A DNA stretch of 43,135 bases from Clostridia bacterium (GCA_017445085.1 JAFSUT010000032.1:1-43135); one strand, 5' to 3'. Shown: positions 6,566 through 29,844, numbered from the stretch's first letter. Made by a program: numbers and translations. The notes: generated by a model not told the origin, from the sequence alone.

Positions 6566-8110
6566 TCATTCCGCTTTGCAAACAGTTTTTTTGCCGCGCG
6601 AGAAAATATTTTTGAGCCACGCCCACTCCCCGGCGGAGAAAACGCCGAAAAGACGGGAAAAAAGGAGATACAAACCGATATAGACAAGGAGCGCCGCCAA
6701 AAGCTGCGGCACGGCGCCGCCCGCCTCGACGCCAAAAAAGCAAAGACGGGCGAGGTTGCCCGCCGCCGCCGCGGAAAGGAGGGGCGCAAGCATCCATCGC
6801 CACACCGATACGCGCATCGGCAAAAGCGAGAGCAGGCGGGAAAAACTGAGGACCGTGTTGACCGTTTCCGAAAGATAGATCACGAGGATGTATCCCATCA
6901 CACCGAGCCGGGGGACGAGCAGCCAGACGAGGAGCGCCGAGACGCCCGCGTCCGCAATGTTGACAAACATCACGTAGACCTGCGCGCCCAACCCTTTGAG
7001 CATGGCGTCCACTGCGGTGTCCGCAAACATCACCGGCATCAGCGGCGCAAACAGCCGCAGGTAGATCGCCGCGTCCCCGCTTTTGTAGACGGCGCGGCAG
7101 ATCGCAAGAGGAAAGGTGCAAAACGCACCGGCGCACAGGATCGAAAACCATACCGTGACCGAAACGGCGCGGGCGCCGACGTAGGCGATCCCGGTTTTGT
7201 TTTTTGCGGCGTCCATCTCGGTCACCTCGGGGATCAGCAGTCCCGAAAAGGCGCCGATAAACGCCGACGGGTACAAAACGAGCGGCAGCGCCGCCGCCGT
7301 GACGACGCCGTAGGTAGCGAGCGCCGCGCTGTCGCCGTAGGCGGCAAGCCCTATGGGGATGAGGATATGTTCCAGCGTCACGAGCCCCGAACGCACGTAC
7401 GCCGAGCCTGCCACGGGCAGAGCGTTTTGCGCGGTGGCGGCAAGCGGAAAGCCGCGGCAGTCGCGCGAGAGATGACGTGCGTCCGCAAGATACACCGCCG
7501 TTTCCGCGAGAAAGGAAACGATCTCGCCGACGCTGCCGCCCAGCACCAGCGCAAGGCAGGCGTAGGCGATACCGCGCCAGGAAAGGGCGGCGAGGAGCAG
7601 GGTCGTTGCAAGGATCTTTACCGCCTGCTCAAACACACCGGAAAGCGCGCTTTTCCACACGCGGCGCACCGCCGAAAAATAGCCGGCGTACGCCGAGGAG
7701 AGCGAAAGCGGGAGCAGAGAAAGCGAAAGCGCGCGCAGGGACGCCGCCGCACGCAGATCGAGGAGAAGATGCGCGGCGATCCACCGCGAAAAGAAAAAAA
7801 CCGCAAGCGTTGCCGCACTGCCGAACAGCGCCGCGTAGAGGAGGCAGGCGCGCATTGCCCCGCGAAGTTCTTTTTTCTCGCCCCGCCCGAAATGGAGCGC
7901 ACACAGGCGCGTTGCCGCAAGTCCGACGCCGGAGGTGGCAAAGGTCACCGCAAATGAATACACGCTCATCACCAGCGAGTACAGCCCCATCGCCTCTTTG
8001 CCGATCTCGCGCACGCAAAACGAGTTGAACGCCACCCCGACCGTCCGCATACAAAGCGTGCAAAGTCCCAGCGTCAGCGCCCCGTAAAAATACTGTCTTG
8101 CCCGTTTCAA
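6566..8110 (-). CDS. SpoVB/MurJ-like polysaccharide biosynthesis (MOP) flippase
   Basis: 514 aa with many TM helices; IGKEAMGLYSL, ATSGV, FEQAVKI motifs typical of SpoVB; TTG start with AGGAGG. Confidence 0.82.
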   Translation of the reverse strand: MKRARQYFYGALTLGLCTLCMRTVGVAFNSFCVREIGKEAMGLYSLVMSVYSFAVTFATSGVGLAATRLCALHFGRGEKKELRGAMRACLLYAALFGSAATLAVFFFSRWIAAHLLLDLRAAASLRALSLSLLPLSLSSAYAGYFSAVRRVWKSALSGVFEQAVKILATTLLLAALSWRGIAYACLALVLGGSVGEIVSFLAETAVYLADARHLSRDCRGFPLAATAQNALPVAGSAYVRSGLVTLEHILIPIGLAAYGDSAALATYGVVTAAALPLVLYPSAFIGAFSGLLIPEVTEMDAAKNKTGIAYVGARAVSVTVWFSILCAGAFCTFPLAICRAVYKSGDAAIYLRLFAPLMPVMFADTAVDAMLKGLGAQVYVMFVNIADAGVSALLVWLLVPRLGVMGYILVIYLSETVNTVLSFSRLLSLLPMRVSVWRWMLAPLLSAAAAGNLARLCFFGVEAGGAVPQLLAALLVYIGLYLLFSRLFGVFSAGEWAWLKNIFSRGKKTVCKAE

Positions 8111-8133
8111 AACGTCCCCTCCTTTTTCTCTCC

Positions 8134-17269: not shown

Positions 17270-17389
17270 ATTGTAAAGCGCGGGCGCGCGCCCGTCAATG
17301 CAAAGATTTTTCACTTTTCAAAATTTTCTTGCGGCGCGGACAGGCGCCTGTTTTGTATTATTATACCACGCCGCCCCGCCGCTTTTCAA
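17270..17389 (-). promoter_or_regulatory. Two tandem sigma-A-like promoters for the SDR gene
   Basis: TTGACG-N17-TACAAT (17270-17298) and TTGAAA-N18-TATAAT (17360-17389) on the minus strand. Confidence 0.55.
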
Positions 17390-17441
17390 TGCTTTCGGCT
17401 GCCGAAGTTTATTTTTCGACCCTCGGGCGCACGGCGCGGTG

Positions 17442-17479
17442 CGTGTAAAAAAGGCGCCGTCGCGGCGCCTTTTTTACGC
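17442..17479 (-). terminator. Intrinsic terminator after the uvrA-like gene
   Basis: GTAAAAAAGGCGCCG / CGGCGCCTTTTTTAC inverted repeat. Confidence 0.85.
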
Positions 17480-17483
17480 GGGA

Positions 17484-19985
17484 TCACAGGTACTTTCCCG
17501 TCACGCTTGCGGGATCGTTTTTGATCTTCTCCGGCGTGCCGACGGCAATCACGCGCCCGCCGAGTTCTCCGCCGCCCGGTCCCATATCAATGATATAATC
17601 GGCGTTTTTGATGACGTCAAGATCGTGCTCGATAACGATGACCGTCGCCCCCGCCGCAACCAGCGTGCGAAATACCGAAAGCAGGGTCTCCACGTCCAGC
17701 GGATGCAGCCCGATGGTCGGCTCGTCAAAGACGAACACCGTGTCCTCCTGCCCCCTGCCCATCTCCCCGGCGAGTTTCAGCCGCTGGGCTTCCCCGCCCG
17801 AAAGACCGGGCGTTTCTTCACCGAGGGTGAGATAGCCGAGTCCCAGCGCCGAGAGCACTTCAAGTTTGCGTTTGACCGGCGGCAGATCCCGGCAGACATC
17901 GACCGCCTCATCCACGCTCATATCCATCAGCGCGGGCAGGGAGTATCCGCGCTGCCCTCCCTTCGGCGTGCGGCAGATCAAACTTGCCTCGCGGCCGTAG
18001 CGCGAACCGCCGCAGTCGGGGCAAGGGATATCCACGTCCGGCAAAAACTGCACGTCCAGGCTGATGGCGCCCGTCCCGTCGCAGGTCGGACAGCGCAGCC
18101 GCCCCGTGTTGTAGGAAAAATCGCCCGCCCCAAAGCCCCCGGCTTTGGCGTCCGCACAGCGCGCATATGCCTTGCGCAGTTCATCGTGGACGTCGGCGTA
18201 GGTCGCCACGGTAGAGCGCACGTTGACCCCGATCGGCGTGGCGTCGATCAGTTTGACCCGGCGGATGCCGTCCGCCTTGACCGCCTTTACGTGCGCGGGG
18301 GCGGCGGTGCCCCCGATTTCGGCTTCCAGCGCAGGGATCAGACTTTCAAGCACCATGGTCGTTTTCCCCGAGCCGGATACGCCGGTGACCGCCACCAGCC
18401 GCCCTTTCGGAAAATCAACTTCCAGCGGTTTGACCGTGTGGATCTCCGCCGTGGACAGATGGATCTTTCCAAGGGCAAAGACCTCGCCGCCCGCGGCGCG
18501 TCCGCCCACGTCCACCGTCCGTTTGCCCGACAAAAAGCCGCCGATGCGCGAGTTTTCGTTTTCCGCAACGTCCGCCACCGTTCCCGCGGCGATCACGCTG
18601 CCGCCGCCGGCGCCCGCGCCCGGTCCCATTTCGATCAACCAGTCGGCGCGACGCAAAACGTTGGTATCGTGATCGACCAGCACCACCGTATTGCCGTCCG
18701 CCAAAAGGTCGTCCATCACGCCGTACAGCCCCTCAAGGTTGGACGGATGCAGACCGATGGACGGCTCGTCCAGCACGTAGAGTACGCCCGTGGTGCGGTT
18801 GCGCACGGCGCGGGCAAGCTGCATCCGCTGGCGCTCCCCCGTGGAGAGCGTGGACGCGGCGCGATCCAGCGTGAGATAGGAAAGCCCGAGGTCACAAAGG
18901 CGCTTCGCCGCCCCGAAAAACGAGGCGCAAATGCTCTCTGCCATCGGGCGCATCTCCGGCGGAAGAGAGGACGGCACGCCATCTGCAAACGAGATCGCCG
19001 CCGCAAGCGTCATTTTGCAGACGTCGGCAAGCGAGATCCCGCAAAGGCGCGGGGCGCGCGCGGCGTCCGAAAGGCGCGTACCGCCGCAATCGGGGCAAAT
19101 ATCCTGCCGCAAAAATTTTTCCACGCGCTTCATTCCCTTTTCGTCCTTGACGCGGGCAAGTGCGTTTTCCACCGTATATTTGGCGTTGAAGTAGGTAAAC
19201 ATCATATCGCCCGCTTCGCCCGTCGTCTTATTTTGATAGACGACGTTTCGCTTTTCGGCAGGGCCGTTGAACACGATGTCCCGCTCGCGCGCGGTCAGAT
19301 CCTTGAACGGCACGTCGGTACGCACGCCCATCTCGCGGGCAATATCCTTCATCAGCGACCACATCAGCGTTTGCCAAGGCGCGACCGCGCCCTCGTCGAT
19401 GGTGAGGTTTTCATCGGGGACGAGCGTGGATTCATCCACCGTCCGTACAACGCCGGTGCCGTCGCACCTTTTGCACGCGCCCTGACTGTTAAACGCAAGT
19501 TCCTCCGCGCCCGGGGCAAAAAAACTTTCGCCGCAGGTCGGACAGACCAGCGGGCGTTCCGCCGCCACGTTCATCGACGGCGGCAGATAATGCCCGTTTT
19601 TACAGCGGTGACTTGCCAGGCGCGAAAACATCGGGCGCAAAATATTGAGCAGTTCGGTCCCCGTACCAAACGTACTGCGGATGCCGGGGACGCCCGGACG
19701 CTGCCGCAGGGCAAGCGCCGCAGGGACGTACAAAACCTCGTCCACCTGCGCCTTTTCCGCCTGGGTCATCCGGCGGCGCGTGTAGGTGGACAGCGATTCC
19801 AGATACCGGCGCGAGCCCTCCGCGTACAAAATGCCGAGCGCCAGCGAGGATTTGCCCGAGCCGGACACGCCCGCGATGCCGCACAGTTTGCCGAGCGGGA
19901 TATCCACGTTGATATTTTTCAAATTATGAACTCTGCCGCCGCGCACCTGGATATGACTCGGCGATTTCTTTGTATTCTGCTCCAT
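17484..19985 (-). CDS. uvrA: UvrA-family ABC ATPase (probably a class II paralog)
   Basis: VHNLKNI, GVSGSGKSSLA, zinc-finger Cys pairs, LSTGERQR, DEPSIGLH, second GVSGSGKT, LSGGEAQRLKLA; 833 aa, shorter than canonical UvrA. Confidence 0.85.
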   Translation of the reverse strand: MEQNTKKSPSHIQVRGGRVHNLKNINVDIPLGKLCGIAGVSGSGKSSLALGILYAEGSRRYLESLSTYTRRRMTQAEKAQVDEVLYVPAALALRQRPGVPGIRSTFGTGTELLNILRPMFSRLASHRCKNGHYLPPSMNVAAERPLVCPTCGESFFAPGAEELAFNSQGACKRCDGTGVVRTVDESTLVPDENLTIDEGAVAPWQTLMWSLMKDIAREMGVRTDVPFKDLTARERDIVFNGPAEKRNVVYQNKTTGEAGDMMFTYFNAKYTVENALARVKDEKGMKRVEKFLRQDICPDCGGTRLSDAARAPRLCGISLADVCKMTLAAAISFADGVPSSLPPEMRPMAESICASFFGAAKRLCDLGLSYLTLDRAASTLSTGERQRMQLARAVRNRTTGVLYVLDEPSIGLHPSNLEGLYGVMDDLLADGNTVVLVDHDTNVLRRADWLIEMGPGAGAGGGSVIAAGTVADVAENENSRIGGFLSGKRTVDVGGRAAGGEVFALGKIHLSTAEIHTVKPLEVDFPKGRLVAVTGVSGSGKTTMVLESLIPALEAEIGGTAAPAHVKAVKADGIRRVKLIDATPIGVNVRSTVATYADVHDELRKAYARCADAKAGGFGAGDFSYNTGRLRCPTCDGTGAISLDVQFLPDVDIPCPDCGGSRYGREASLICRTPKGGQRGYSLPALMDMSVDEAVDVCRDLPPVKRKLEVLSALGLGYLTLGEETPGLSGGEAQRLKLAGEMGRGQEDTVFVFDEPTIGLHPLDVETLLSVFRTLVAAGATVIVIEHDLDVIKNADYIIDMGPGGGELGGRVIAVGTPEKIKNDPASVTGKYL

Positions 19986-20138
19986 AGGTTCTCCGAAATT
20001 TTCAAAATTTTTCCTGTTTTTCCAAAATTATATATACCATAAACGGGATAAAAAAGCAAGCGGAGAATGCTTTGGAAACTCTGCCTTAAATTTTGCCGTT
20101 TTTGCGCGCGGATCTTGCCGTTTTGGAAATCATTACAT

Positions 20139-20407: not shown

Positions 20408-21013
20408 ATGAAAAAGATCCTTACGCTTTGTATGTCGGCGCTCCTCTTTTTGTCGGTCGCCGCTTCGGCGTCCGCCGCCGACGTCTTTTATACGGTGGTG
20501 CGCGGCGACAGTTTGTGGAAGATCGCCGTGCGGCACGAAATCGGCGTCAGTGAGATCATCGCCGCCAATCCGCAGATCCAAAACCCGAATTTGATCTATC
20601 CCGGCAATATCGTGCGCGTTCCCTTGCAGGATGCCGGCGTCGCCGCCTATGAGGACGAAGTTATCCGCCTTGTCAATGCGGAGCGGGCGCGGTACGGGCT
20701 GAGTCCCTTATCCAAAAATTGGGAACTCTGCCGCGTGGCGCGTTACAAATCGCAGGACATGGCGGACAGGCGCTACTTTTCGCACACGAGCCCGACCTAC
20801 GGCTCGCCGTTTCAGATGATGAAATCTTTCGGCATCACCTACCGCGCGGCGGGTGAAAACATCGCCTACGGTCAGCGGACGCCGCAAGAGGTCGTCAACG
20901 CCTGGATGAACTCACCGGGACACAGGGCAAACATCTTAAACGCCGCCTTTACCGAGATCGGCGTCGGGTACGTGGCAAGCGGGAACTACTGGACGCAGAT
21001 GTTTATCGGATAA
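20408..21013 (+). CDS. SafA/ExsA-type LysM + CAP(SCP) domain secreted protein
   Basis: Signal peptide; LysM YTVVRGDSLWKIA...NPQIQNPNLIYPG; CAP domain KSQDM..YFSHTSPTYGSPF, GENIA, WMNSPGHRANIL. Confidence 0.9.
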   Translation: MKKILTLCMSALLFLSVAASASAADVFYTVVRGDSLWKIAVRHEIGVSEIIAANPQIQNPNLIYPGNIVRVPLQDAGVAAYEDEVIRLVNAERARYGLSPLSKNWELCRVARYKSQDMADRRYFSHTSPTYGSPFQMMKSFGITYRAAGENIAYGQRTPQEVVNAWMNSPGHRANILNAAFTEIGVGYVASGNYWTQMFIG

Positions 21014-21018
21014 AACAT

Positions 21019-21057
21019 AAAACAAGGGTGGGGCAAATGCCCCGCCCTTGTTTTTTT
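21019..21057. terminator. Bidirectional terminator
   Basis: AAAACAAGGGTGGGGC / GCCCCGCCCTTGTTTT. Confidence 0.85.
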
Positions 21058-21084
21058 ATCGTGCGGAAAAACGCATACCATCCT

Positions 21085-23244
21085 TTACTTTCTGCCAAAA
21101 AGCGATTTGAAGAAATTTCCGATCGCATCCAAAATATTGAAAAACCAGTTGGATTTTTGTTCGGTCTTCGGCGCCGACTTTGCATCGGCGGCGCCGCTCT
21201 GTGACGGATTCGTCTTTTCTTCGGTCTTTTGGGATGTTTTTGCGTCTTTGGCGCTTTCCCCGCCGACATGATTGCTTTCGGAAGAAGGTTGCTGTGCGGC
21301 AGTTTCACCGCCTGCCGCGGGCGTTTTTTCGCTCTCCCGCGACTGTGCCGACGCCTCTGTCTTGCCGCCGTTTTGCTTGCCGCCGACCGTGCCGTCAGAA
21401 GTCTTCGGGGCGTTGGCGCCGGGGGCTGTGGGCTGTGCCGACGGTGTGGGAATCTGTATGTCGGTAGACGGCGCCGACGGTGCGGTTGCCGCAGGCGCCG
21501 ACGGCGTTACTTCCACGTCCGACGTCAGCCCGCCGCTCTGCATCTGTCCGTCCGCAGGGCGCGGGAACTGTCCCTGTTCGCCGCCCGGGAACTGTCCGTC
21601 TATGGGCGCCTGTCCCTGTTCGCCGCCCGGGAACTGTCCGTCTATGGGCGCCTGTCTCTGTTCGCCGCCCGGGAACTGTCCCTCTGTGGGGCGCTGTCCC
21701 TGTCTGCCGCCGGGCATCCGTCCCTGATTTGCGCCGGGGAATTGTCCCTCTGCGGGCATCTGTCCTTGTGTGCCGCCGGGGAATTGTCCCTGTCTGCCGC
21801 CCATATTGCCCATACCCATGCCGCCGACCGAAGTCGTGCCGGCGGTGGCGGTGGCTGCCGTTTCGCTGCCGACCTTGAGCGTATACGACGCGCCCGAGGT
21901 CAAGGCGGGGCTTGCAAAGAGGATATAACTTGCGTTTCTGACCGCTTTTGCCTCATACAGCACCGTCCCTTTCTCGTCGGTGATTTGGAAGCTGCCGCCC
22001 GCGCTGACCAGTGCGGTCTGCGCACCGCCAAAGCCGCCCATTCTGCCGCCCATCATGCCGGTCGTACTGTCAAACGTCAGGTAAGGCGTATCGGCGGTGT
22101 ATCCCTGCATCATACCGAGGTGACCGACCGCAAGGACGGTCGCACCCTTAAAGTTTGTGCCGGTTTCGGCGTCGAGCGGATCGCCGTCCCCCTGCGATGG
22201 CGCATAAACTTCCAGCGTGCCGCCGCAGAGATTGATGGCGCCGTTGGAATCCACGCCGTCCCCCGCGGTGACGTTGATGTAAACGCTTCCGCCGTACTGA
22301 TTGTAAGCAAAACTATAATTCGTCAGGTCGGAATTTGCCGCATTGACGCCGTCGTCGGTGGCGTTGACCGTGATGTTGCCCGAATAGATATTGAGCGTTG
22401 CCGCCTCTATCCCCTCTTTCGACTTTACAACGTTTACGGTGGGTCCCGCCGTGCCGTCTGCGCCGATATTCATCACGTAGTCGCATTTGACGCCGTCGTC
22501 CGCCGCGGATACCGTGACGTTGCCGGAAAGGATGTTGAGTTCTTTATCGGCTTTGAGCCCATCGCCGACGGTTGCGGTGATGTTCAGCGTCAGATCACGG
22601 ATCGTCAGCGACGCCGTGGAGAGGAGCGTATCGGTGGCGTTGCCGTCGGCATCTTCTTCGTAGAGATCAGCGCCGCCTTTGACGCCGTTTTTGCCGTTTG
22701 CCGTGACACTCAAAGTACCGCTGCCGCAAAGGGTGACGTTTGCGCCGTCCTTGCACTTGATGACCGCGTTTTCAATGTCCGGATACAGCGCCGCATCGGT
22801 ATAAATATCGTCGTTGTTGTACTTGTCGTCGGCGAGGTGATTGACCGTGCCCGCCGCCGCGACGATCTTGACCTCGCTGCCCTTGTTGCAGGTCAGGGGC
22901 GCGGTCGCAGACGCCGTGAGTGTGAGCCCGTTCAGCACCAGGGTGACGCCGGTGACGTTTTTCTTTATGACGATACTGCCGTCCTCACAGGCGCCGGAGA
23001 GGATATACGTGCCGGCCTCTTTGATGGTCAGCGACGTGCCGTCGATCTTGTAGCCGCTGTACGTCCCCTCGTTTACCGTGATCCCCGCGGCGGTGAAAAC
23101 AAAACTCGTTGCCCCCGCGGCGGTATATTCACTCTGTGTGGCAGTTTGCCCCGCGGCAAACACCGCCGTGGAAAACAAGAGGAGCGCCGCAAGCAAAAGC
23201 GCGCCGAGGCGAAGGTGTTTCATCGTTGATTTTTGGATTTTCAT
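21085..23244 (-). CDS. Cthe_2159-family (DUF4353) carbohydrate-binding beta-helix protein with Gln/Gly/Pro-rich linker
   Basis: Signal peptide; TLTIKEAGTYILSG, LVLNGLTL, DGLKA, DDGVKC, EGIEA, DDGVNAA, GDGVDSNG repeats; low-complexity tail; amphipathic C-terminus. Confidence 0.85.
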   Translation of the reverse strand: MKIQKSTMKHLRLGALLLAALLLFSTAVFAAGQTATQSEYTAAGATSFVFTAAGITVNEGTYSGYKIDGTSLTIKEAGTYILSGACEDGSIVIKKNVTGVTLVLNGLTLTASATAPLTCNKGSEVKIVAAAGTVNHLADDKYNNDDIYTDAALYPDIENAVIKCKDGANVTLCGSGTLSVTANGKNGVKGGADLYEEDADGNATDTLLSTASLTIRDLTLNITATVGDGLKADKELNILSGNVTVSAADDGVKCDYVMNIGADGTAGPTVNVVKSKEGIEAATLNIYSGNITVNATDDGVNAANSDLTNYSFAYNQYGGSVYINVTAGDGVDSNGAINLCGGTLEVYAPSQGDGDPLDAETGTNFKGATVLAVGHLGMMQGYTADTPYLTFDSTTGMMGGRMGGFGGAQTALVSAGGSFQITDEKGTVLYEAKAVRNASYILFASPALTSGASYTLKVGSETAATATAGTTSVGGMGMGNMGGRQGQFPGGTQGQMPAEGQFPGANQGRMPGGRQGQRPTEGQFPGGEQRQAPIDGQFPGGEQGQAPIDGQFPGGEQGQFPRPADGQMQSGGLTSDVEVTPSAPAATAPSAPSTDIQIPTPSAQPTAPGANAPKTSDGTVGGKQNGGKTEASAQSRESEKTPAAGGETAAQQPSSESNHVGGESAKDAKTSQKTEEKTNPSQSGAADAKSAPKTEQKSNWFFNILDAIGNFFKSLFGRK
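21562..21801 (-). repeat. Intragenic 42-bp tandem repeats encoding GQFPGGxQGQ-type units
   Basis: Identical 42-bp units at 21568-21609 and 21610-21651, a third near-identical unit at 21652-21693, then degenerate copies. Confidence 0.85.
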
Positions 23245-23282
23245 AGTCGTTTCCTCCGTTGTGATTTTTTCTTTCTGTCTTT

Positions 23283-23329
23283 ATTTTACGGCCAAAGATT
23301 GAAACTAAATTGAAGTTTTTTAATTTTTT
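23283..23329 (-). promoter_or_regulatory. Tandem TTCAAT-N5-TTCAAT box with -10 TAAAAT (site 1)
   Basis: Plus strand ATTGAA at 23298-23303 and 23309-23314; -10 at 23283-23288, 9 nt away. Confidence 0.75.
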
Positions 23330-24000
23330 CAAAGTTGATTTTGCGTTTCCGCATACGGCAAAAGCGCGATCTCAAGATTGCCGTTTTTCGTGCGGAGTTC
23401 GTCGATAAACGCCTTTTCCTCCGCGGGATCTTTCATCTGCACTTTATACGAAAGGCGGAACATACTGCCCATGCCGGTGGTTTTTACGCCGGCGTTTTCG
23501 ATTTTTTTCAGATAGCGGTCGAAAATATCGTCAAACGCGCCGTTGTACTCCAGCGACTCGGGGATCGTGATGCGGAGCAGTTGTTCCGCCGCGGCGGTCT
23601 TATGCTCAAACAACGGCGCCGCGCTGAGAAAGAAGAAGAGCGCCGCAAGCACGACGAGGATCACCACGCCGTAGGCGATATAACCCATACCAAAGGCGAT
23701 GCCCGACCCCATGGAGATCAGAATGGCGGCGATCTCATCCGCGCTCCCCTGCGCCGAGCGGAAGCGGATCAGTCCAAACGCACCGCCGATGGCAACGCCC
23801 GCGCCGATATTGCCGTTGACAAAGGTGATCACGGCGGCGACCACAAAGGGGAGCAGCGCCGTCACGATGAAAAACCGCTTGGTGGAACGAACGCGAAAAC
23901 TCATGATAAAGGCGTATACGAGCCCTGCCGCAAGCGCGGCGGCCGCCATGATGAAAAACTGCGCCGGCGTTACGGTGCCGGAATAAATCGACTGAAACAT
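23329..24000 (-). CDS. DUF4956 domain membrane protein
   Basis: VNGNIGAGVAIGGAFGLIRFRSAQGSADEI, LRITIPESLEY, FIDELRTKNGNLEI. Confidence 0.9.
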   Translation of the reverse strand: MFQSIYSGTVTPAQFFIMAAAALAAGLVYAFIMSFRVRSTKRFFIVTALLPFVVAAVITFVNGNIGAGVAIGGAFGLIRFRSAQGSADEIAAILISMGSGIAFGMGYIAYGVVILVVLAALFFFLSAAPLFEHKTAAAEQLLRITIPESLEYNGAFDDIFDRYLKKIENAGVKTTGMGSMFRLSYKVQMKDPAEEKAFIDELRTKNGNLEIALLPYAETQNQL

Positions 24001-24018
24001 ACCTATTCTCCTTTTCTG

Positions 24019-24714
24019 TTAAACGGCTTTTGCCCCGACAAGGCAACGGCTGTACGCCTCGCCGTATTTGGAAAAACTGCTTTTTTTGATCTTGCCCGCC
24101 GAGAGGATCCGGGCAAGCCATAGTGGCATCGCCCCTTCAAGTTTGATCTCCACGATCGTCTGTCCGTCCTCAAAAAACGGCGTGCCGTCAAGACTGTCCG
24201 TCAGGGTGAGGCGGTCTGTACGATAGCGCGGGCACTCGTCGATCGTGAGGCGGAGATCGCCGTCCGGCGCAAAATACGCAGTGCGGTCATAGAGGATCAG
24301 ACAGGTCGGCACCAGCGTTTTGTAATAGTCGCGAAACGCCGTCATCTCGCGGTCGATCTGCCCCTCGCCGAGATCTTCCCCACCGCTGAGAAACCGCTCT
24401 GCCTGCGGGATCGTCGTTTGCACGCGGCGCTTGTATACGACGTCGTACGCCTTGCGCTTCATCTCGAGAAAGACGGGCGAGGACGCGTCGGCAAGTCCGT
24501 AGGCACGCAGGCGCATCTTTTCCTTAAAGAGCGGCTTTTCCACACTCGTCCGGATCAGCCGAAAGTTCGGCGTATCGTAGTAGAGCGAGGCGATCGTCGT
24601 TTTACCGTAGTTGTCCGCCGCCATATAGCCGTCAAGGTGTTCTCTCAAAAATTCGGTCTGCGCCGCGGTCAGCAAATATTTCATCTCCACGCGCTGCATT
24701 ACCGTGATTGCCAT
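24019..24714 (-). CDS. VTC-domain (polyphosphate polymerase / CYTH-like) protein
   Basis: RVEMKYLL, IASLYYDT, KEKMRLRAY, FLEMKRK, YKRR, YDRTAY, LRLTID, EIK, SFSKYG. Confidence 0.9.
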   Translation of the reverse strand: MAITVMQRVEMKYLLTAAQTEFLREHLDGYMAADNYGKTTIASLYYDTPNFRLIRTSVEKPLFKEKMRLRAYGLADASSPVFLEMKRKAYDVVYKRRVQTTIPQAERFLSGGEDLGEGQIDREMTAFRDYYKTLVPTCLILYDRTAYFAPDGDLRLTIDECPRYRTDRLTLTDSLDGTPFFEDGQTIVEIKLEGAMPLWLARILSAGKIKKSSFSKYGEAYSRCLVGAKAV

Positions 24715-24733
24715 ACGTATTCCTCCTTTGAAT

Positions 24734-26329
24734 TTATCGGGACGTCACAGGCTGGTCGCTGTAACATGCCGTGCCGCCGTAGGTCTCCGAATTTGTAAAC
24801 GTATACGAAACGCCGCCGATCTCCACCGTGTGCGTGCCCTCCGTATGCAAATCAAGCGCATACGAAGGCAGATCTCCCTTTGGCAAAGTCGCGCCGCCGA
24901 GGACGATCAGCGTGCCGCCGGATACCGTCACGTCGCCGTCGGCGTCCAGCGCCGCCGCAGCCGCGCCGGACGGGCCGCGCGTGATCACCACGCCGCCCGA
25001 CTGCACGTAGTCGCCGTTTGTGTCGATGCCGTCGGTGTCTTTTGTCGGCGAGACCTCCACGTCCAGATATCCGCCGCAAATTTCGACGCGGGGCGCCTCG
25101 GCGCCCTTGCAGGCGTTGACGCCGTCGTCGCCGGCGCGGATCGTCGTCCTGCCGCCGAGAATGCGGATGACGTTGGCTTCCAGCCCCTCATAGGCGCTCT
25201 CTATCGTGACTCTCCCGCCCGAGATCTCAAGCACGCCGTCGGCGTGGACGGCGTCCGCGCCGTAGGCTGTCTGCGCCGCGGCGGCGCTTTTGTGCTCCGC
25301 CGCGGTTTTGTTTTCGGGGGTGGAAACGCACATCACGACCTTGCCGCCCGAGAGCAGGATATCGCCTTTGCCGACGCCGCCGGCGGCAAAAATCTTGCCG
25401 CTGTCGGCGTGCAGCCCGTCGTCGTCGCAAAAGAGGGTGATCTCGCCGTCCGCCACGCGCACTTCGTTTTGCGCCTTGACGCCCTTGTAGGAGGTCGTCG
25501 TCACGTCGGAAGCGGTATAACCGCTGCAGGCGCCGGTATACACCGTCACCGTCGGGGCGCCGCCGTCCGCCTGCGCCGTCATTTCAAAATCGTGCGCCGC
25601 CGAAAAGCCGTCGCCTGCGGCGTAAACGGTGATCTCGCCGCCCGAGAGCAGGACGTCGCCGCGGACTTTGCCGCTCTTGTTCAAATCTGTATTCTCGGTT
25701 TTGACGCCGTCGCCCGTTTTCGACGCGGCGACAAGCCTGCCGCCCGTCACGGTGACCGAGTCGCCGCCGCAGATCGCCGCGCCGCGGGCAACGACTTTTA
25801 AGGAAAGATTTTGGATCACAAGATCCTTTGTCGTCACGATGCCGCTCCCCGCGCCGCCGTCCACAACAAGGATACCGTGTCCCTTGATCTTGAGGTCGCA
25901 GGCGGCGCTGATCGCGCCCTCTGTCTGTGCGGCGATTTGCACTGTGCGGGTATCTTCGATCACGTTTTCGGTCCCCCGCACGGCGGAGATCTCGGTCTTA
26001 CCTGCCGTGCGTACCTCGATCGGCGCGCCCTGTCCGCAGGTGACGGTGGCGCCGGCAAGCTGCAGGACGACTTCGTCGTTTTCTCCGGCGTCCACCACGA
26101 TCCGTCCGTCGAGCAGTCCTTTTGCCGTGTAGGTCCCCGCCGAGGTGATCGTATACACGCCGTCCGCACGCTCCACGGCGCCGTCTCCCGTTTGCAGGGA
26201 AAACGCGCCGGTGACTTTATCCGCGCTGACGGTCGTATCCACCGCCGAAGCTTCCCCGTCCCGCGCGCCGCAGGCGGCAAGCGCAAGCGCCAGTGCGGCG
26301 GCGCTCAAAATCGCAATGCCTTTTTTCAT
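24734..26329 (-). CDS. Cthe_2159-family (DUF4353) carbohydrate-binding lipoprotein
   Basis: Lipobox LAAC; YTITSAGTY, GDGVKT, DDGLHAD, YEGLEA, DDGVNA, DGIDTNG. Confidence 0.85.
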   Translation of the reverse strand: MKKGIAILSAAALALALAACGARDGEASAVDTTVSADKVTGAFSLQTGDGAVERADGVYTITSAGTYTAKGLLDGRIVVDAGENDEVVLQLAGATVTCGQGAPIEVRTAGKTEISAVRGTENVIEDTRTVQIAAQTEGAISAACDLKIKGHGILVVDGGAGSGIVTTKDLVIQNLSLKVVARGAAICGGDSVTVTGGRLVAASKTGDGVKTENTDLNKSGKVRGDVLLSGGEITVYAAGDGFSAAHDFEMTAQADGGAPTVTVYTGACSGYTASDVTTTSYKGVKAQNEVRVADGEITLFCDDDGLHADSGKIFAAGGVGKGDILLSGGKVVMCVSTPENKTAAEHKSAAAAQTAYGADAVHADGVLEISGGRVTIESAYEGLEANVIRILGGRTTIRAGDDGVNACKGAEAPRVEICGGYLDVEVSPTKDTDGIDTNGDYVQSGGVVITRGPSGAAAAALDADGDVTVSGGTLIVLGGATLPKGDLPSYALDLHTEGTHTVEIGGVSYTFTNSETYGGTACYSDQPVTSR

Positions 26330-26383
26330 ACCGTCATCTCCTTTGGAGAATAAAAATCTCCTCTGTATTTGTCCTTACTTAAC

Positions 26384-26430
26384 AATATACAGAGGAGGAT
26401 TGAAAAAAGATTGAAGTTTTTTAATTTTTT
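26384..26430 (-). promoter_or_regulatory. Tandem TTCAAT-N5-TTCAAT box with -10 TATATT (site 2)
   Basis: Plus strand ATTGAA at 26399-26404 and 26410-26415; -10 at 26384-26389, 9 nt away; shares a 21-mer with site 1. Confidence 0.75.
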
Positions 26431-26435
26431 TATTT

Positions 26436-27719
26436 TTAATTCTTTTTCAGCGGGAGGGAAACCGTAAAGACCGCCCTGCCGGAAAGATACGCAGCGCGGA
26501 TCTTTCCGCCGTGCGCCTTTGTGACCGCCTGCGCGATGGAAAGTCCGAGCCCGTAGTGCCCGTCCTCACCGCTGCGTGCGGCGTCCGTGCGGTAAAAGCG
26601 GTCAAACAAATGTGAAAGTTGCTCCGCGCCGAGTTCTTCCGCGTCGTTTTCGACCGTCAGCACCGCAAAATGCCGCTGGCGTTTGAGCGAAACCAGGATC
26701 TCCTTGCCGTTGCCGTGCGAGAGCGCGTTGTCAAGGAGGATGGAAACAAGTTGGCACAGGCGGTTTTTGTCGCCCGAAACGTACAGCCCCGCGTCGATAT
26801 CCGACGTGATGGTAACGCCGCGCTCAAACGCCAGCGTCTCAAACGGAAAAACCTCGCCCAGGGTCAGTTTGGAAAAATCCAGCGTCTCTTTCACCGCCGT
26901 GCCGCCCTCGGCGCGCGACAGGGCAAGCAGTTGTCCGACAAGGTCCTGCATCCGCCGGTTTTCGTAGTCGATATTGCCGAGCCACTCGCTGTCCCCCCAC
27001 TCACGCCGCAACAGGTCGCTGTTGGCGGAGATCACGGCGATCGGGGTTTTCAGTTCGTGTCCGGCGTCCGAAACAAAGCGCTTTTGCCGCTTGTCGTTTT
27101 CTTCCAGCGGGCGCACGATCCGACGGGCGATCACCACCGAGATCGCAAACAGGATCACCGTTGACGCCGCCCCGATCCAGATCATTTGCCAAAACAGGCG
27201 GCTTTGATAACGATCGCTGACCGTGCCGTCGATCATGGCGACCAGCGTATAGTCCTCCCGCGCGTCCACAAGATAGGTCATACTGCCGACCTTGCCCTCC
27301 GTTTGCCCCGTCTTCAAGATCCCGGCGGCGGTCTCCGTCAGCGTTTCTTCACTCTGCACGCCGTTGTTGCCGGTCTCGACCGTCAACACTTCCCCGTCCT
27401 TGTCATACGCCACCGCGTAAAAGGTCGACAGCCGAAACGCCGGCTCAAATTTTTCGGGGCGCCCGCGGCGCATATCGCGCAGTTCGTCCTTTTCAGCCGG
27501 AAAAGCCGCAGGCTTTTCGCCCGCCCCGCTCTCCCCGTCGGGCAGCGCGGGGGGCGCATACGGAGAAAACCGCTCGGCAAAAGTATGGAGCATTTCGCGG
27601 TTTTCCCGCGCCGCCGCCGCACGGCTCGAAAGATAGATCGTCGTAAGCGTCACCGTCATCAGCGCAAGGAGAGAAAACACGACCGTAAATACGATCTTTC
27701 TCCGCGTTTGTTCAAACAT
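26436..27719 (-). CDS. Sensor histidine kinase (HisKA + HATPase, two TM helices)
   Basis: H-box FVSDAGHELKTPI, N-box ILLDNA, LFDRFYR, G2 GLGLSIA. Confidence 0.93.
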   Translation of the reverse strand: MFEQTRRKIVFTVVFSLLALMTVTLTTIYLSSRAAAARENREMLHTFAERFSPYAPPALPDGESGAGEKPAAFPAEKDELRDMRRGRPEKFEPAFRLSTFYAVAYDKDGEVLTVETGNNGVQSEETLTETAAGILKTGQTEGKVGSMTYLVDAREDYTLVAMIDGTVSDRYQSRLFWQMIWIGAASTVILFAISVVIARRIVRPLEENDKRQKRFVSDAGHELKTPIAVISANSDLLRREWGDSEWLGNIDYENRRMQDLVGQLLALSRAEGGTAVKETLDFSKLTLGEVFPFETLAFERGVTITSDIDAGLYVSGDKNRLCQLVSILLDNALSHGNGKEILVSLKRQRHFAVLTVENDAEELGAEQLSHLFDRFYRTDAARSGEDGHYGLGLSIAQAVTKAHGGKIRAAYLSGRAVFTVSLPLKKN

Positions 27720-28392
27720 CACCGCACCTCAATTCATACCCTATGCCGCGCAGGGCTTTGATCTCGCATTTGGATTCCACAAACGCAAGTTTCTTTCGCA
27801 CAAACGACATATACACTTCCACGTTGTTATACTCGGCGTCCCCCTCGTAGCCCCAGACTTTCAGCGCGATCTGCTCACGCCCCAGCACCTGTCCCTGATT
27901 TGCGATCAGGTATTCGAGGATGCGGAGTTCCTTTTCGCCGAGGCGCACGCTCTGCCCGTTGTCGCATCGGAGGAGCGCGCCTTTAACGTCCAGCGACAGG
28001 TCGCCAAAGGTCAGGCGCCCGTCGTTTGTCGGCAGTCCGCGCCGCCCGAGCGCGCGCAGGCGCGCAAGCAGTTCCTCGGTCATAAAGGGTTTGGTCAGAT
28101 AATCGTCCGCGCCGCTGTCCAGACCCTCTACCTTGTCGTCAAGTTCGCTCTTTGCCGTGAGCATCAGGATCGGCGAGCGGATGCCGCTCGCCCGTGCACG
28201 GTGCGCAACCGAAAAGCCGTCAAGCCCCGGCATCATCACGTCCAGTACCGCGAGATCATAAATGCCGCTTTCCAATTCAATGAGGGCGTCGTTGCCGTTG
28301 TCCACCGCCGTCACCTCGTACCCCTCGCGCCGCAGGATCTCACAAAGCGCCCGATTCATCCGTTTTTCGTCTTCCGCAAGCAGTATCTTCAT
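27712..28392 (-). CDS. OmpR/PhoB-family response regulator
   Basis: MKILLAEDE, LDVMMPGLDG, GADDYLTKPF, winged-helix VWG...NNVEVYMSFVRKKL...RGIGY; GGAGG RBS before the ATG at 28392. Confidence 0.94.
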   Translation of the reverse strand: MKILLAEDEKRMNRALCEILRREGYEVTAVDNGNDALIELESGIYDLAVLDVMMPGLDGFSVAHRARASGIRSPILMLTAKSELDDKVEGLDSGADDYLTKPFMTEELLARLRALGRRGLPTNDGRLTFGDLSLDVKGALLRCDNGQSVRLGEKELRILEYLIANQGQVLGREQIALKVWGYEGDAEYNNVEVYMSFVRKKLAFVESKCEIKALRGIGYELRCGDV

Positions 28393-28420
28393 CCCGTCGC
28401 CTCCCTGCCCGTTTTTTCTT

Positions 28421-28453
28421 ATGGTATTCCGCAAATATTGAATCAAGATTGAA
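28421..28453 (-). promoter_or_regulatory. Tandem TTCAAT-N5-TTCAAT box with -10 TACCAT (site 3, possible autoregulation)
   Basis: Plus strand ATTGAA at 28437-28442 and 28448-28453; -10 at 28421-28426, 10 nt away. Confidence 0.7.
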
Positions 28454-28578
28454 CGCGCCGAAAAATCTCCGCTTTGTGCGGCAGGCGCTTTTTTTCAGTG
28501 TATCACAAATCGGGCGCAAACGCAAATATTTTGCAAAAAGACGGCGTGCACACTGCATTTTTTGTGAATTTTAAAACC

Positions 28579-28607
28579 TTGACAAATTCGATGCACGGTA
28601 GTATAGT
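28579..28607 (+). promoter_or_regulatory. sigma-A promoter for ugd
   Basis: TTGACA-N17-TATAGT. Confidence 0.75.
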
Positions 28608-28653
28608 AATATGCAATGAAAAAATAGAAAAACCGTAAGACGGAGGATCTATC

Positions 28654-29844
28654 ATGCAAACCAAAATCGCCGTTGCCGGCACGGGCTACGTCGGCCTCTC
28701 CATCGCCGCGCTGCTCGGGCAAAAATATCCTGTGTGCGCCATCGACATCATCAAGGAAAAAGTCGACCTCATCAACAGCGGCGTCTCGCCGATCCGCGAT
28801 GAGTATATCGAAAAATTCCTCGCTGAAAAGCGCACGAGCATCCACGCCACGCTCGACCCCAAAGAGGCGTATACGGGCGCGGATTTTATCGTCGTTGCCG
28901 CACCGACGAACTACGACCCGCAAAAGAACTATTTTGATACGAGCGCGGTGGAAAATGTCATCGAGACCGCACGCACCTACAACAAGGACGCATTTATCGT
29001 CATCAAATCCACCATCCCCGTCGGTTATACGAGATCCGTGCGCGAAAAGTTCGGCGACGACAAGATCTTGTTCAGCCCCGAGTTCCTCCGTGAGTCGAAA
29101 GCACTGTACGACAATCTCTATCCCTCCCGCATCATCGTGGGCACCGATATGGAAAACCCCGCGCTGGTCGATGCGGCAAACCGCTTTGCCGATATGATGG
29201 ATTCCTGCACCGCGGAGCAGAACAGCAAAAAACTCCTGATGAACTTTACCGAGGCGGAGGCGGTCAAACTCTTTGCCAACACCTACCTCGCCCTGCGCGT
29301 ATCCTTTTTCAACGAGTTGGACAGTTACGCCGAGGCTAAAGGGCTGGATACCAAGCAGATCATCGAGGGCGTCTGCCTTGACCCGCGCATCGGCAACTTC
29401 TACAACAACCCCTCGTTCGGCTACGGCGGCTACTGCCTGCCGAAGGACACAAAGCAACTGCTTGCCAACTACGACAATGTGCCCAACAATATCATCGGCG
29501 CCATCGTGGACGCCAACCGCACGAGAAAAGATTTCATCGCGGACAGAATTATTGAAAAAAAGCCGAAGATCGTCGGCGTTTACCGCATCACGATGAAAAC
29601 CAACTCGGACAACTTCCGCGCCTCCTCGGTGCAGGGCGTAATGAAGCGCATCAAGGCAAAGGGCATCGAAGTGGTCGTCTACGAGCCCTCGCTGAAAGAC
29701 GATCTCTTTTTCAACTCGCGCGTCATCCGCGACATCGACGAGTTCAAAAAAATGTCCGACGTTATCATTGCCAACCGTTTCTCCCCCGATATCGAGGATG
29801 TGCTGGACAAGGTTTACACGCGCGATTTGTATTTCAGAGATTAA
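28654..29844 (+). CDS. ugd: UDP-glucose 6-dehydrogenase
   Basis: [52 protein letters not shown]. Confidence 0.95.

Follow-up and report, generated by a model that had tools for sequence, protein, structure and literature searches.

We analyzed a 43,135-nucleotide stretch of DNA from a rumen Clostridia bacterium (GCA_017445085.1, JAFSUT010000032.1:1–43135; hereafter the window), in which the same direct repeat, TTCAAT-N5-TTCAAT, lies upstream of a two-component regulator–kinase operon and of neighboring genes for Cthe_2159-domain, VTC-domain and DUF4956 proteins. All of these genes are on the minus strand, and their families were assigned using Pfam. The response regulator (27712–28392; 226 amino acids) contains a receiver (REC) domain (PF00072, E = 4.6e-27) and a winged-helix Trans_reg_C domain (PF00486, E = 2e-19), the domain pair of the OmpR/PhoB class, and its start is most likely the ATG at 28392 rather than the upstream TTG of the longest open reading frame (ORF); orthologs use the same ATG. 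The gene for a histidine kinase of 428 amino acids (26436–27722), whose start overlaps the regulator's end, encodes HisKA and HATPase_c domains and two hydrophobic membrane spans that flank a loop of ~145 amino acids. This loop matched no Pfam family even at E values up to 10, no HAMP or PAS domain was detected in the kinase by Pfam, and neither the regulator nor the kinase had a named equivalog in NCBIfam. Downstream, a 531-amino-acid Cthe_2159-domain lipoprotein (24734–26329) heads an operon with a 231-amino-acid VTC-domain protein (24019–24714), which has a tunnel domain of the polyphosphate-polymerase type, and a 223-amino-acid DUF4956 protein (23329–24000). A second Cthe_2159-domain protein of 719 amino acids, with a long low-complexity tail, is encoded at 21085–23244. 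These are the families that a first-pass annotation of the window had named, with the correction that the product heading the operon, which it called simply a lipoprotein, is itself a Cthe_2159-domain protein.

Direct repeats and promoter-like elements in the window

On the gene strand, the exact repeat (ATTGAA-N5-ATTGAA when read on the plus strand) occurs three times in the window, compared with 0.01 occurrences expected, and 0 of 100 dinucleotide-preserving shuffles of the window reached three. When up to two mismatches were allowed, the count rose to four sites versus 2.99 expected and was no longer above chance, the one additional site being unrelated. The three exact boxes are each placed as a promoter element would be. 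Box 3 (TTCAATCTTGATTCAAT, 28437–28453) lies 45 nucleotides (nt) upstream of the regulator ATG, making it a candidate autoregulation site, and is followed after 10 nt by the –10-like hexamer TACCAT (28421–28426). Box 2 (TTCAATCTTTTTTCAAT, 26399–26415) lies 20 nt past the kinase stop codon and is followed after 9 nt by TATATT (26384–26389), in what we predict to be the promoter of the Cthe_2159-VTC-DUF4956 operon. Box 1 (TTCAATTTAGTTTCAAT, 23298–23314) is followed after 9 nt by TAAAAT (23283–23288), in the promoter predicted for the second Cthe_2159 gene. Each box is in turn followed by a ribosome-binding site and an ATG codon, at 23244, 26329 and 28392 for boxes 1, 2 and 3, respectively. A consensus scan of the minus strand detected no –35/–10 sigma-70 promoter at any of the three places, and the sole strong consensus sigma-70 match (11 of 12 positions) was the divergent, plus-strand promoter of a UDP-glucose dehydrogenase gene (28579–28607). 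The positions of the boxes and the spacing and identity of the three hexamers in the absence of a –35 element had all been proposed in the first-pass annotation, and each of these proposals held up in our analysis, as did the exact sequence shared by two of the sites, to which we now turn.

Sites 1 and 2 contain an identical 21-mer (23309–23329 and 26410–26430), with mismatches bounding it on both sides. Its non-box portion is a 15-nt A/T-rich tract directly upstream of each box (23315–23329 and 26416–26430, minus strand), which by position resembles an UP element and may act as one; the tract upstream of box 1 has one base (23329) in common with the DUF4956 stop codon (23329–23331). At orthologous kinase-downstream boxes the flanks are similarly A/T-rich, with low information per position, and the letter-for-letter identity of the two tracts in the window could reflect constraint, conversion or copying. 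In strain contigs from four DNA runs that were aligned to 23200–28700, with differences read up to position 26093, changes were found in the spacer at 23292 and 23293 and none in box 1 or its –10 hexamer.

Distribution of the box and its association with the regulator type

The draft assembly that contains the window (G000) comprises 1,534,970 bases in 127 contigs and is 53% complete. The repeat is not common in it: four exact copies were found in the 1.53 Mb, compared with ~0.08 expected from the 490 single hexamers and with no occurrence of a reversed control pattern, and all four lie ahead of a –10-like hexamer (at 9, 9, 10 and 9 nt) and a start codon 53–80 nt downstream (45 nt for box 3). 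The fourth box, on the minus strand of an unlinked contig (C39:15119–15135, corresponding to L001:8120–8136), is followed after 9 nt by TAAAAT and then by an ATG 80 nt past the box. This ATG begins the gene for a Gly/Thr-rich lipoprotein of 496 amino acids (P0001; L001:6570–8060, minus strand), which matched no Pfam or NCBIfam family and was not detectable as a Cthe_2159 relative, as only the signal peptide aligned in profile–profile comparison with nine Cthe_2159 proteins. An AlphaFold2 model of P0001 had a mean predicted local distance difference test (pLDDT) score of 68.6, with most ten-residue blocks of residues 101–430 at 74–98 and four dipping to 56–67. When this model was compared with solved structures using VIA-align, the matches included 7akv_G (Z = 33.5, root-mean-square deviation of 2.9 over 298 residues) and 2iou_H (Z = 30.7), with Z at least 19 in all of the best 50 matches; in a Foldseek search of the PDB all E values were above 0.01. 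As modeled, P0001 is a right-handed parallel beta-helix protein.

Homologs of P0001 support the fourth site. Proteins 45–76% identical to P0001 are encoded directly behind a box beside the regulator pair in four other loci (L066, L067, L071 and L072), and in another genome (G039, locus L133) a homolog lies directly behind a box at a place unlinked to the regulator, just as P0001 does in the genome of the window. Because these homologs directly follow the same box elsewhere, the site on C39 is independently validated. In a further genome (G030, L134), a box is found roughly 0.55 kb before the inferred start of an unlinked homolog that is 46% identical and to which it is only tentatively linked.

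Weaker boxes in the draft genome numbered 6 with one mismatch and 93 with two. The ORF context was examined for three of the one-mismatch hits and for one two-mismatch hit, and the other three one-mismatch hits were judged by their flanks only; none of the examined hits combined an intergenic place, a correctly spaced –10 hexamer and a gene behind it. The hit at C99:26355–26371 has TAAGAT at 9 nt and lies between convergent ORFs, the one on C121 is only 10 nt ahead of a start codon, and the one on C14 has no –10 hexamer at the right distance.

In 61 relatives, the exact box was found 57 times in 31 genomes, compared with 13 occurrences (0.21 per genome) of the same pattern written backwards. 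A regulator at least 66% identical to that of the window is encoded in eight genomes (G000 included), all eight of which have an exact box at the regulator–kinase locus; together these eight hold 18 boxes. Orthologous loci were then compared in two sets. The first consisted of 20 loci of relatives found from the VTC protein and mapped with six proteins of the window; two of them contain the same type of regulator (84% identical in G023 and 67% in G003), and in both, exact boxes precede the regulator and also come immediately behind the kinase. The second set came from a regulator search in one-genome-per-species contigs and comprised 80 loci, 34 with regulators 60–86% identical to that of the window (L052–L085) and 46 with regulators 39–51% identical (L086–L131), which served as controls. 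The 34 loci were from Clostridia, Oscillospiraceae, Lachnospiraceae, Christensenellaceae, Anaerovoracaceae, Breznakia, metagenome-assembled genomes of Spirochaetales/Sphaerochaetaceae, and the cultured Lancefieldella rimae ATCC 49626 (L072).

Of the 34 loci, 25 have a box with at most one mismatch in the 250 nt that precede the regulator; of the 30 for which the 200 nt behind the kinase were available, 23 have one there; and none of the 46 control loci has one at either position. The conservation at orthologous loci foreseen by the first-pass annotation was therefore observed. In a hexamer count for which no motif was supplied, TTCAAT-type words ranked first, with TCAATC and TTCAAT at the top upstream of regulators (21 and 23 of 34 loci) and TTCAAT at the top after kinases (25 of 30). 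Considering whole loci, the 36 from other gut and rumen bacteria with this type of regulator (at least 60% identity; 375,409 nt) contained 57 boxes when up to one mismatch was allowed. Every one of these is on the strand of the regulator, most of them shortly before the regulator or shortly behind the kinase, versus none on either strand of the 46 control loci (516,042 nt). Alignment of the 57 sites extended each unit to TTCAATCTT, followed by a TAnAAT-like –10 hexamer. When the four sites of the window's own genome were added, TAnnnT occurred 9 or 10 nt past the box at 52 of the 61 sites, compared with 2.5% of random positions (506 of 20,000). One locus (L052) has two tandem boxes after the kinase, one with a single mismatch and a hairpin behind it (7972–7988) and the other exact (8100–8116), 128 nt further on and before a Cthe_2159 gene. 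The control regulators, which are mostly actinobacterial, have an enriched word of their own, TCACAG, within 120 nt upstream in 15 of the 46 loci.

The word of the box also followed the recognition helix of the regulator. At loci with TTCAAT boxes the helix EYNNVEVYMSF(T/A/V)RKKL is nearly invariant, with rare changes. Regulators with the helix EDNNVEAYISFLRKKF, which are also found beside VTC-DUF4956 genes, are accompanied by TTTCAG-N5-TTTCAG instead of TTCAAT. Where the regulator and VTC genes diverge (L044:9760–9805 and L048:9610–9655), these TTTCAG direct repeats are arranged as an inverted pair that apparently serves both divergent promoters, and the repeats nearer VTC have TATAAT 10 nt further on. 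Loci with E-x-NVVWVYIS helices (L040, L087 and L043) have 11-bp repeats of the TTTTCA(C/T) type or of TTAAGTT/TTAGGTT. Because distant VTC-linked regulators with other helices have other repeats, the link between this regulator lineage and VTC predates the TTCAAT word, which follows the protein. The closest solved relatives of the regulator are Mycobacterium tuberculosis PhoP (3r0j/5ed4 and 9ji3; E about 6e-45), RegX3, DrrD and PrrA, with PhoB chains also among the matches; the PhoP matches include entries listed with DNA-bound and polymerase complexes.

The content of the predicted regulon is conserved among loci. Behind the kinase-downstream box, the set is commonly VTC-DUF4956-Cthe_2159; other loci have VTC-DUF4956-CotH (L063), Cthe_2159 alone (L073 and L075), a CtheB-type gene (L054), a P0001 homolog or, rarely, a phosphodiester glycosidase gene (L085). 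Boxes before CtheB-type genes were found in L054, L136 and L137 and in genomes G032 and G039, and in G032 a box lies directly after DUF4956 (L132), in the same place as box 1 of the window. An FtsX/ABC pair ahead of the regulator is headed by a box in L081. In two loci, genes for an extra REC-only protein and a degenerate kinase-like protein, which have no counterpart in the window, directly precede VTC-DUF4956 (L032:7081–8881 and L056:2994–4521), and kinase-like genes before VTC are also present in L033 and L034. The VTC and DUF4956 frames, which are 18 nt apart in the window, overlap by 8 nt in six loci (L038, L057, L058, L059, L068 and L069), which suggests coupled translation; complex prediction from the VTC and DUF4956 alignments gave no support for pairing of the two proteins. 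Across genomes, the kinase/regulator pair travels with VTC/beta-helix cassettes.

A hairpin overlapping the kinase-downstream promoter

Beyond the boxes, we found a feature that is new to the description of this locus, a hairpin that overlaps the promoter predicted at box 2. On the minus strand, positions 26397–26387 pair with 26368–26358 to form an 11-bp stem with an 18-nt loop (26358–26397), and a T-run (TTTTT) follows at 26352–26356. The hairpin has a folding energy of –20.8 kcal/mol (z = –4.79), which none of 200 shuffled sequences equaled. Its left arm consists of the spacer between box 2 and its –10 hexamer together with the first bases of that hexamer, and the predicted start from box 2, ~7 nt past the –10 hexamer, falls in the loop.

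The same hairpin is found behind most kinase-downstream boxes elsewhere and is not found at that position of the regulator-upstream boxes. From 33 kinase-downstream and other sites, 20 hairpin sequences were aligned, in which 89.8% of cells were paired, a share that is inflated because the 20 were chosen as folding, with compensatory changes being less affected. Seven of the ten pairs had changed on both sides, and 19 cells were compensatory, compared with 6.4 after shuffling, a number that none of 500 shuffles brought up to 19. When the alignment was slid to other registers, all paired in at most 55% of cells. Such covariation suggests that the strand folds, rather than that the sequence is a palindrome bound by a protein. 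At least five T residues occur in the next 8 nt in 15 of the 20 hairpins. In 11 of the 20, the right arm contains GGAGG followed by ATG after 6–8 nt, and in those 11 this GGAGG is therefore the Shine–Dalgarno sequence of the first gene.

The hairpin has the anatomy of an intrinsic terminator, in that a stable, G+C-containing stem and a direct T-run follow the last gene of the upstream operon, with a loop that, at 18 nt, is longer than typical; a simple terminator scan limited to loops of 3–8 nt did not list it. It may therefore be a terminator of the regulator–kinase operon, a mask of read-through RNA, or both. An Rfam search of 21000–28700 returned nothing at the boxes, leaders or hairpin, its only hits being sub-threshold ones near the terminator at 21000–21095. 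The arrangement would constitute a compact case, backed by covariation, in which a terminator and the next promoter share bases while the promoter's own RNA is not stopped.

A second hairpin closes the cluster. Terminator-like on both strands (21019–21054), it has a strong 16-bp stem with T-runs on either side and is probably a two-way terminator; it lies between the second Cthe_2159 gene and a convergent gene for a LysM-CAP protein (20408–21013), upstream of which a plus-strand ORF of 914 amino acids matched no Pfam family (17298–20042). The C-terminal tail of the 719-amino-acid Cthe_2159 protein (21085–21900) is of low complexity, with GQFPGG-type repeats and a short hydrophobic end. At the other end of the cluster, where the promoters of the regulator and of the UDP-glucose dehydrogenase gene diverge, strain contigs from three runs have a 10-nt insertion (28572, also 28539), and a further 1-nt insertion was present in one run.

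Predicted regulation and its alternatives

Regulators of the OmpR/PhoB class bind 11-bp tandem repeats head-to-tail as phosphorylated dimers, and a site ~10 bp before the –10 hexamer replaces the –35 element and recruits RNA polymerase. The system in the window has the features of this class, with a REC and Trans_reg_C regulator, a cognate kinase alongside and tandem direct repeats of period 11, and its promoters have those of the pho-box type, with an operator that ends ~10 bp upstream of the –10 hexamer and no –35 consensus. We infer that the boxes are, with high probability, activating operator sites of the adjacent regulator, its own promoter included. A repeat of 11-bp period standing where a –35 element is expected is consistent with activation of the OmpR/PhoB type, and a box at the regulator's own promoter with autoregulation. 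The best indirect evidence that the boxes would be bound by the adjacent regulator is that their word tracks its recognition helix.

As we envisage the mechanism, an extracellular signal would be sensed by the ~145-amino-acid outer loop of the kinase, and the phosphorylated regulator would then form a head-to-tail dimer on the two TTCAAT(CTT) units, which, with their 11-bp period, would face the same side of the DNA helix. The unit nearer the promoter, ending 9–10 nt before the –10 hexamer, would stand in for the missing –35 element, and RNA polymerase would be recruited as at pho-box-type promoters. Four promoters of the draft genome would respond: that of the regulator–kinase operon (by positive feedback), that of Cthe_2159-VTC-DUF4956, that of the second Cthe_2159 gene and that of the unlinked beta-helix lipoprotein gene on C39. 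At the hairpin, read-through RNA from the regulator–kinase operon would contain both arms and would be terminated or have its Shine–Dalgarno sequence masked, whereas RNA from the box 2 promoter would start in the loop, without the left arm, and would be expressed.

The geometry of the boxes is by itself compatible with either sign of regulation, and a regulator bound to a box, which covers about –41 to –16, could block polymerase, such that the same protein might repress promoters that are otherwise constitutive. We consider repression unlikely, because none of the promoters has a –35 match, the –10 hexamers in the window include weak ones (TACCAT and TAAAAT), and the fixed 9–10 nt to the –10 hexamer at 52 of 61 sites is the arrangement of an activator such as that of the pho box, whereas a repressor site would need no such strict phasing. 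A different possibility concerns the identity of the pair: because VTC is a polyphosphate-type domain and the first letters of the box resemble the words of Firmicute PhoP, the boxes might be Pho boxes, the pair a phosphate-starvation PhoP/PhoR or PhoB/PhoR system, and VTC a member of the Pho regulon. The matches to the named families argue otherwise, with the regulator scoring 167.2 bits against a cut-off of 296.2 (TIGR02154, PhoB) and the kinase 119.9 against 334.2 (TIGR02966, PhoR). Among the PhoB-like regulators of its genome, this one ranks only fourth; the first belongs to a pair on C107, considered as a candidate for the true PhoPR, which has a HAMP-containing kinase but no pst neighbors. 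The kinase of the window has neither PAS nor HAMP by Pfam, PhoU domains were found only on C119 and C56, in no case adjoined by a box, no pst genes are nearby in this 53%-complete genome, and the pair travels across genomes with VTC/beta-helix cassettes. A Pho system is thus not demonstrable here and we regard it as quite improbable, though the signal may still be related to phosphate.

Some other co-inherited factor, such as a paralogous regulator or an extra receiver/kinase-like pair, could also bind the boxes, given that at least three other full OmpR-class regulators are encoded in the genome and that REC-only and kinase-like proteins precede VTC in L032 and L056. Such a factor would be very unlikely to account for the observations: a survey of ORFs and Pfam domains found no second regulator in the window cluster, 25 of 34 loci have the box at this regulator's own promoter, all 46 loci with other regulators lack it, and the word changes with the recognition helix. 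Finally, the exact 21-mer common to sites 1 and 2 could reflect copying, as would be expected if the boxes were functionless products of chance or relics of a duplicated promoter. With 0.01 boxes expected in the window, and with word, phase and –10 distance kept across regulators only 60–86% identical whose flanks have diverged, we hardly credit this explanation at all.

Several points nonetheless weigh against assigning the boxes to the adjacent regulator, or qualify that assignment, in addition to the selection of folding sequences noted for the hairpin. In the 53 relatives that lack a regulator of at least 66% identity, 39 exact boxes still occur (0.74 per genome), which exceeds the control, and therefore some copies are due to chance or used by other regulators, and the bare word is not fully specific; one exact copy, G023:C33, lies in G+C-rich sequence with no –10 hexamer. 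Autoregulation is not universal: in 9 of the 34 loci, the 250 nt before the regulator contain no box, even with one mismatch allowed. In three of these nine (L056, L066 and L081), the regulator gene comes after several others, and a box is found well upstream, where that string of genes apparently begins. Likewise, 7 of the 30 loci have no box within 200 nt after the kinase, including L076, in which a box overlaps the kinase end. The 80 loci were collected by peptide patterns, two of which are in the DNA-binding domain and include the recognition helix; the same helix is also present in loci found without that peptide (L032, L038 and L136–L140). The P values of the hexamer count are overstated, because related genomes are not independent. 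With an assembly that is only 53% complete, there may be more members of the regulon than the four sites described here.

Three characterized systems offer comparisons. Escherichia coli PhoB, which controls its own operon, acts at the pho box, in which two direct repeats of 11-bp period lie ~10 bp upstream of the –10 hexamer and replace the –35 element. The system described here resembles it in class, in the 11-bp direct repeats ~10 bp before the –10 hexamer without a –35 element, and in the box at its own operon, and differs in its word, TTCAAT(CTT), in proteins far below the PhoB/PhoR cut-offs, and in predicted targets that are VTC/DUF4956 and beta-helix genes rather than pst/pho. The CiaR box of Streptococcus pneumoniae, TTTAAG-N5-TTTAAG, lies ~10 bp upstream of the –10 hexamer and serves a small, envelope-related regulon that includes its own operon; the hexamer-N5-hexamer form, the –10 distance, the small envelope-related gene set with its own operon and the Gram-positive setting are all similar here, whereas the word and targets are different, and no orthology is claimed. 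M. tuberculosis PhoP binds tandem direct repeats head-to-tail and, as the closest solved relative, has the same domain pair; it is nevertheless distant, with a different helix and word and an unrelated regulon. The system in the window is accordingly best viewed as one of a known kind, an OmpR/PhoB-class regulon with a direct repeat that replaces the –35 element, here in predicted control of a widespread VTC/beta-helix module.

Genes of this module have been reported before, in terms of gene content. Genes for cotH, polyphosphate polymerase, DUF4956 and DUF4832 adjoin Gram-positive pel operons (bioRxiv 10.1101/768473), and a VTC-'tubulin'-CotH cluster is part of NELoc-2 of Clostridium perfringens (PMC2879425), as described in the portions of these reports available to us. 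In the corresponding portions of a wider set, VTC, DUF4956 and CotH are listed as accessory or differentially expressed genes (bioRxiv 10.1101/768473, PMC2879425, PMC4983038, PMC13454231, PMC10434189). The loci studied here share with those groups the VTC-DUF4956 pair and a secreted or surface protein (CotH in L063, Cthe_2159 in most loci), and add an operator and a sensor pair, as the available parts of those papers give gene content only, with no two-component system, operator or function. More generally, in the available main texts on VTC, DUF4956, Cthe_2159 and CotH, supplements aside, we found no regulator, operator or function for the module. Among the papers listed on TTCAAT direct repeats and response regulators, none dealt with this system.

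VTC-DUF4956 with a Cthe_2159, CotH or other beta-helix neighbor is widespread in gut, rumen and oral anaerobes, and VTC-DUF4956-type loci have been linked to biofilm and disease, according to the parts of two reports available to us (bioRxiv 10.1101/768473; PMC2879425). In a broader and more speculative picture, which we put forward as a doubtful but conceivable extension, the kinase/regulator pair, the box and the promoter inside a terminator would form a portable control cassette disseminated among Clostridia, Erysipelotrichia, Spirochaetes and Coriobacteriia of the gut and rumen. On an extracellular cue at the kinase loop, this cassette might switch on a membrane polyphosphate machine (the VTC tunnel domain with the DUF4956 membrane protein, equivalent in bacteria to the VTC complex of eukaryotes), along with beta-helix/CotH surface proteins that use or bind the exported polymer. 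More immediately, the box predicts membership of the regulon from sequence alone, and here it brought in a lipoprotein family that is unlinked and has no name in any database. The kinase provides an entry to the inducing signal. A cultured carrier exists in L. rimae ATCC 49626, whose regulator is 66% identical. Together, the operator and its dedicated sensor pair make the function of this widespread, uncharacterized module testable.

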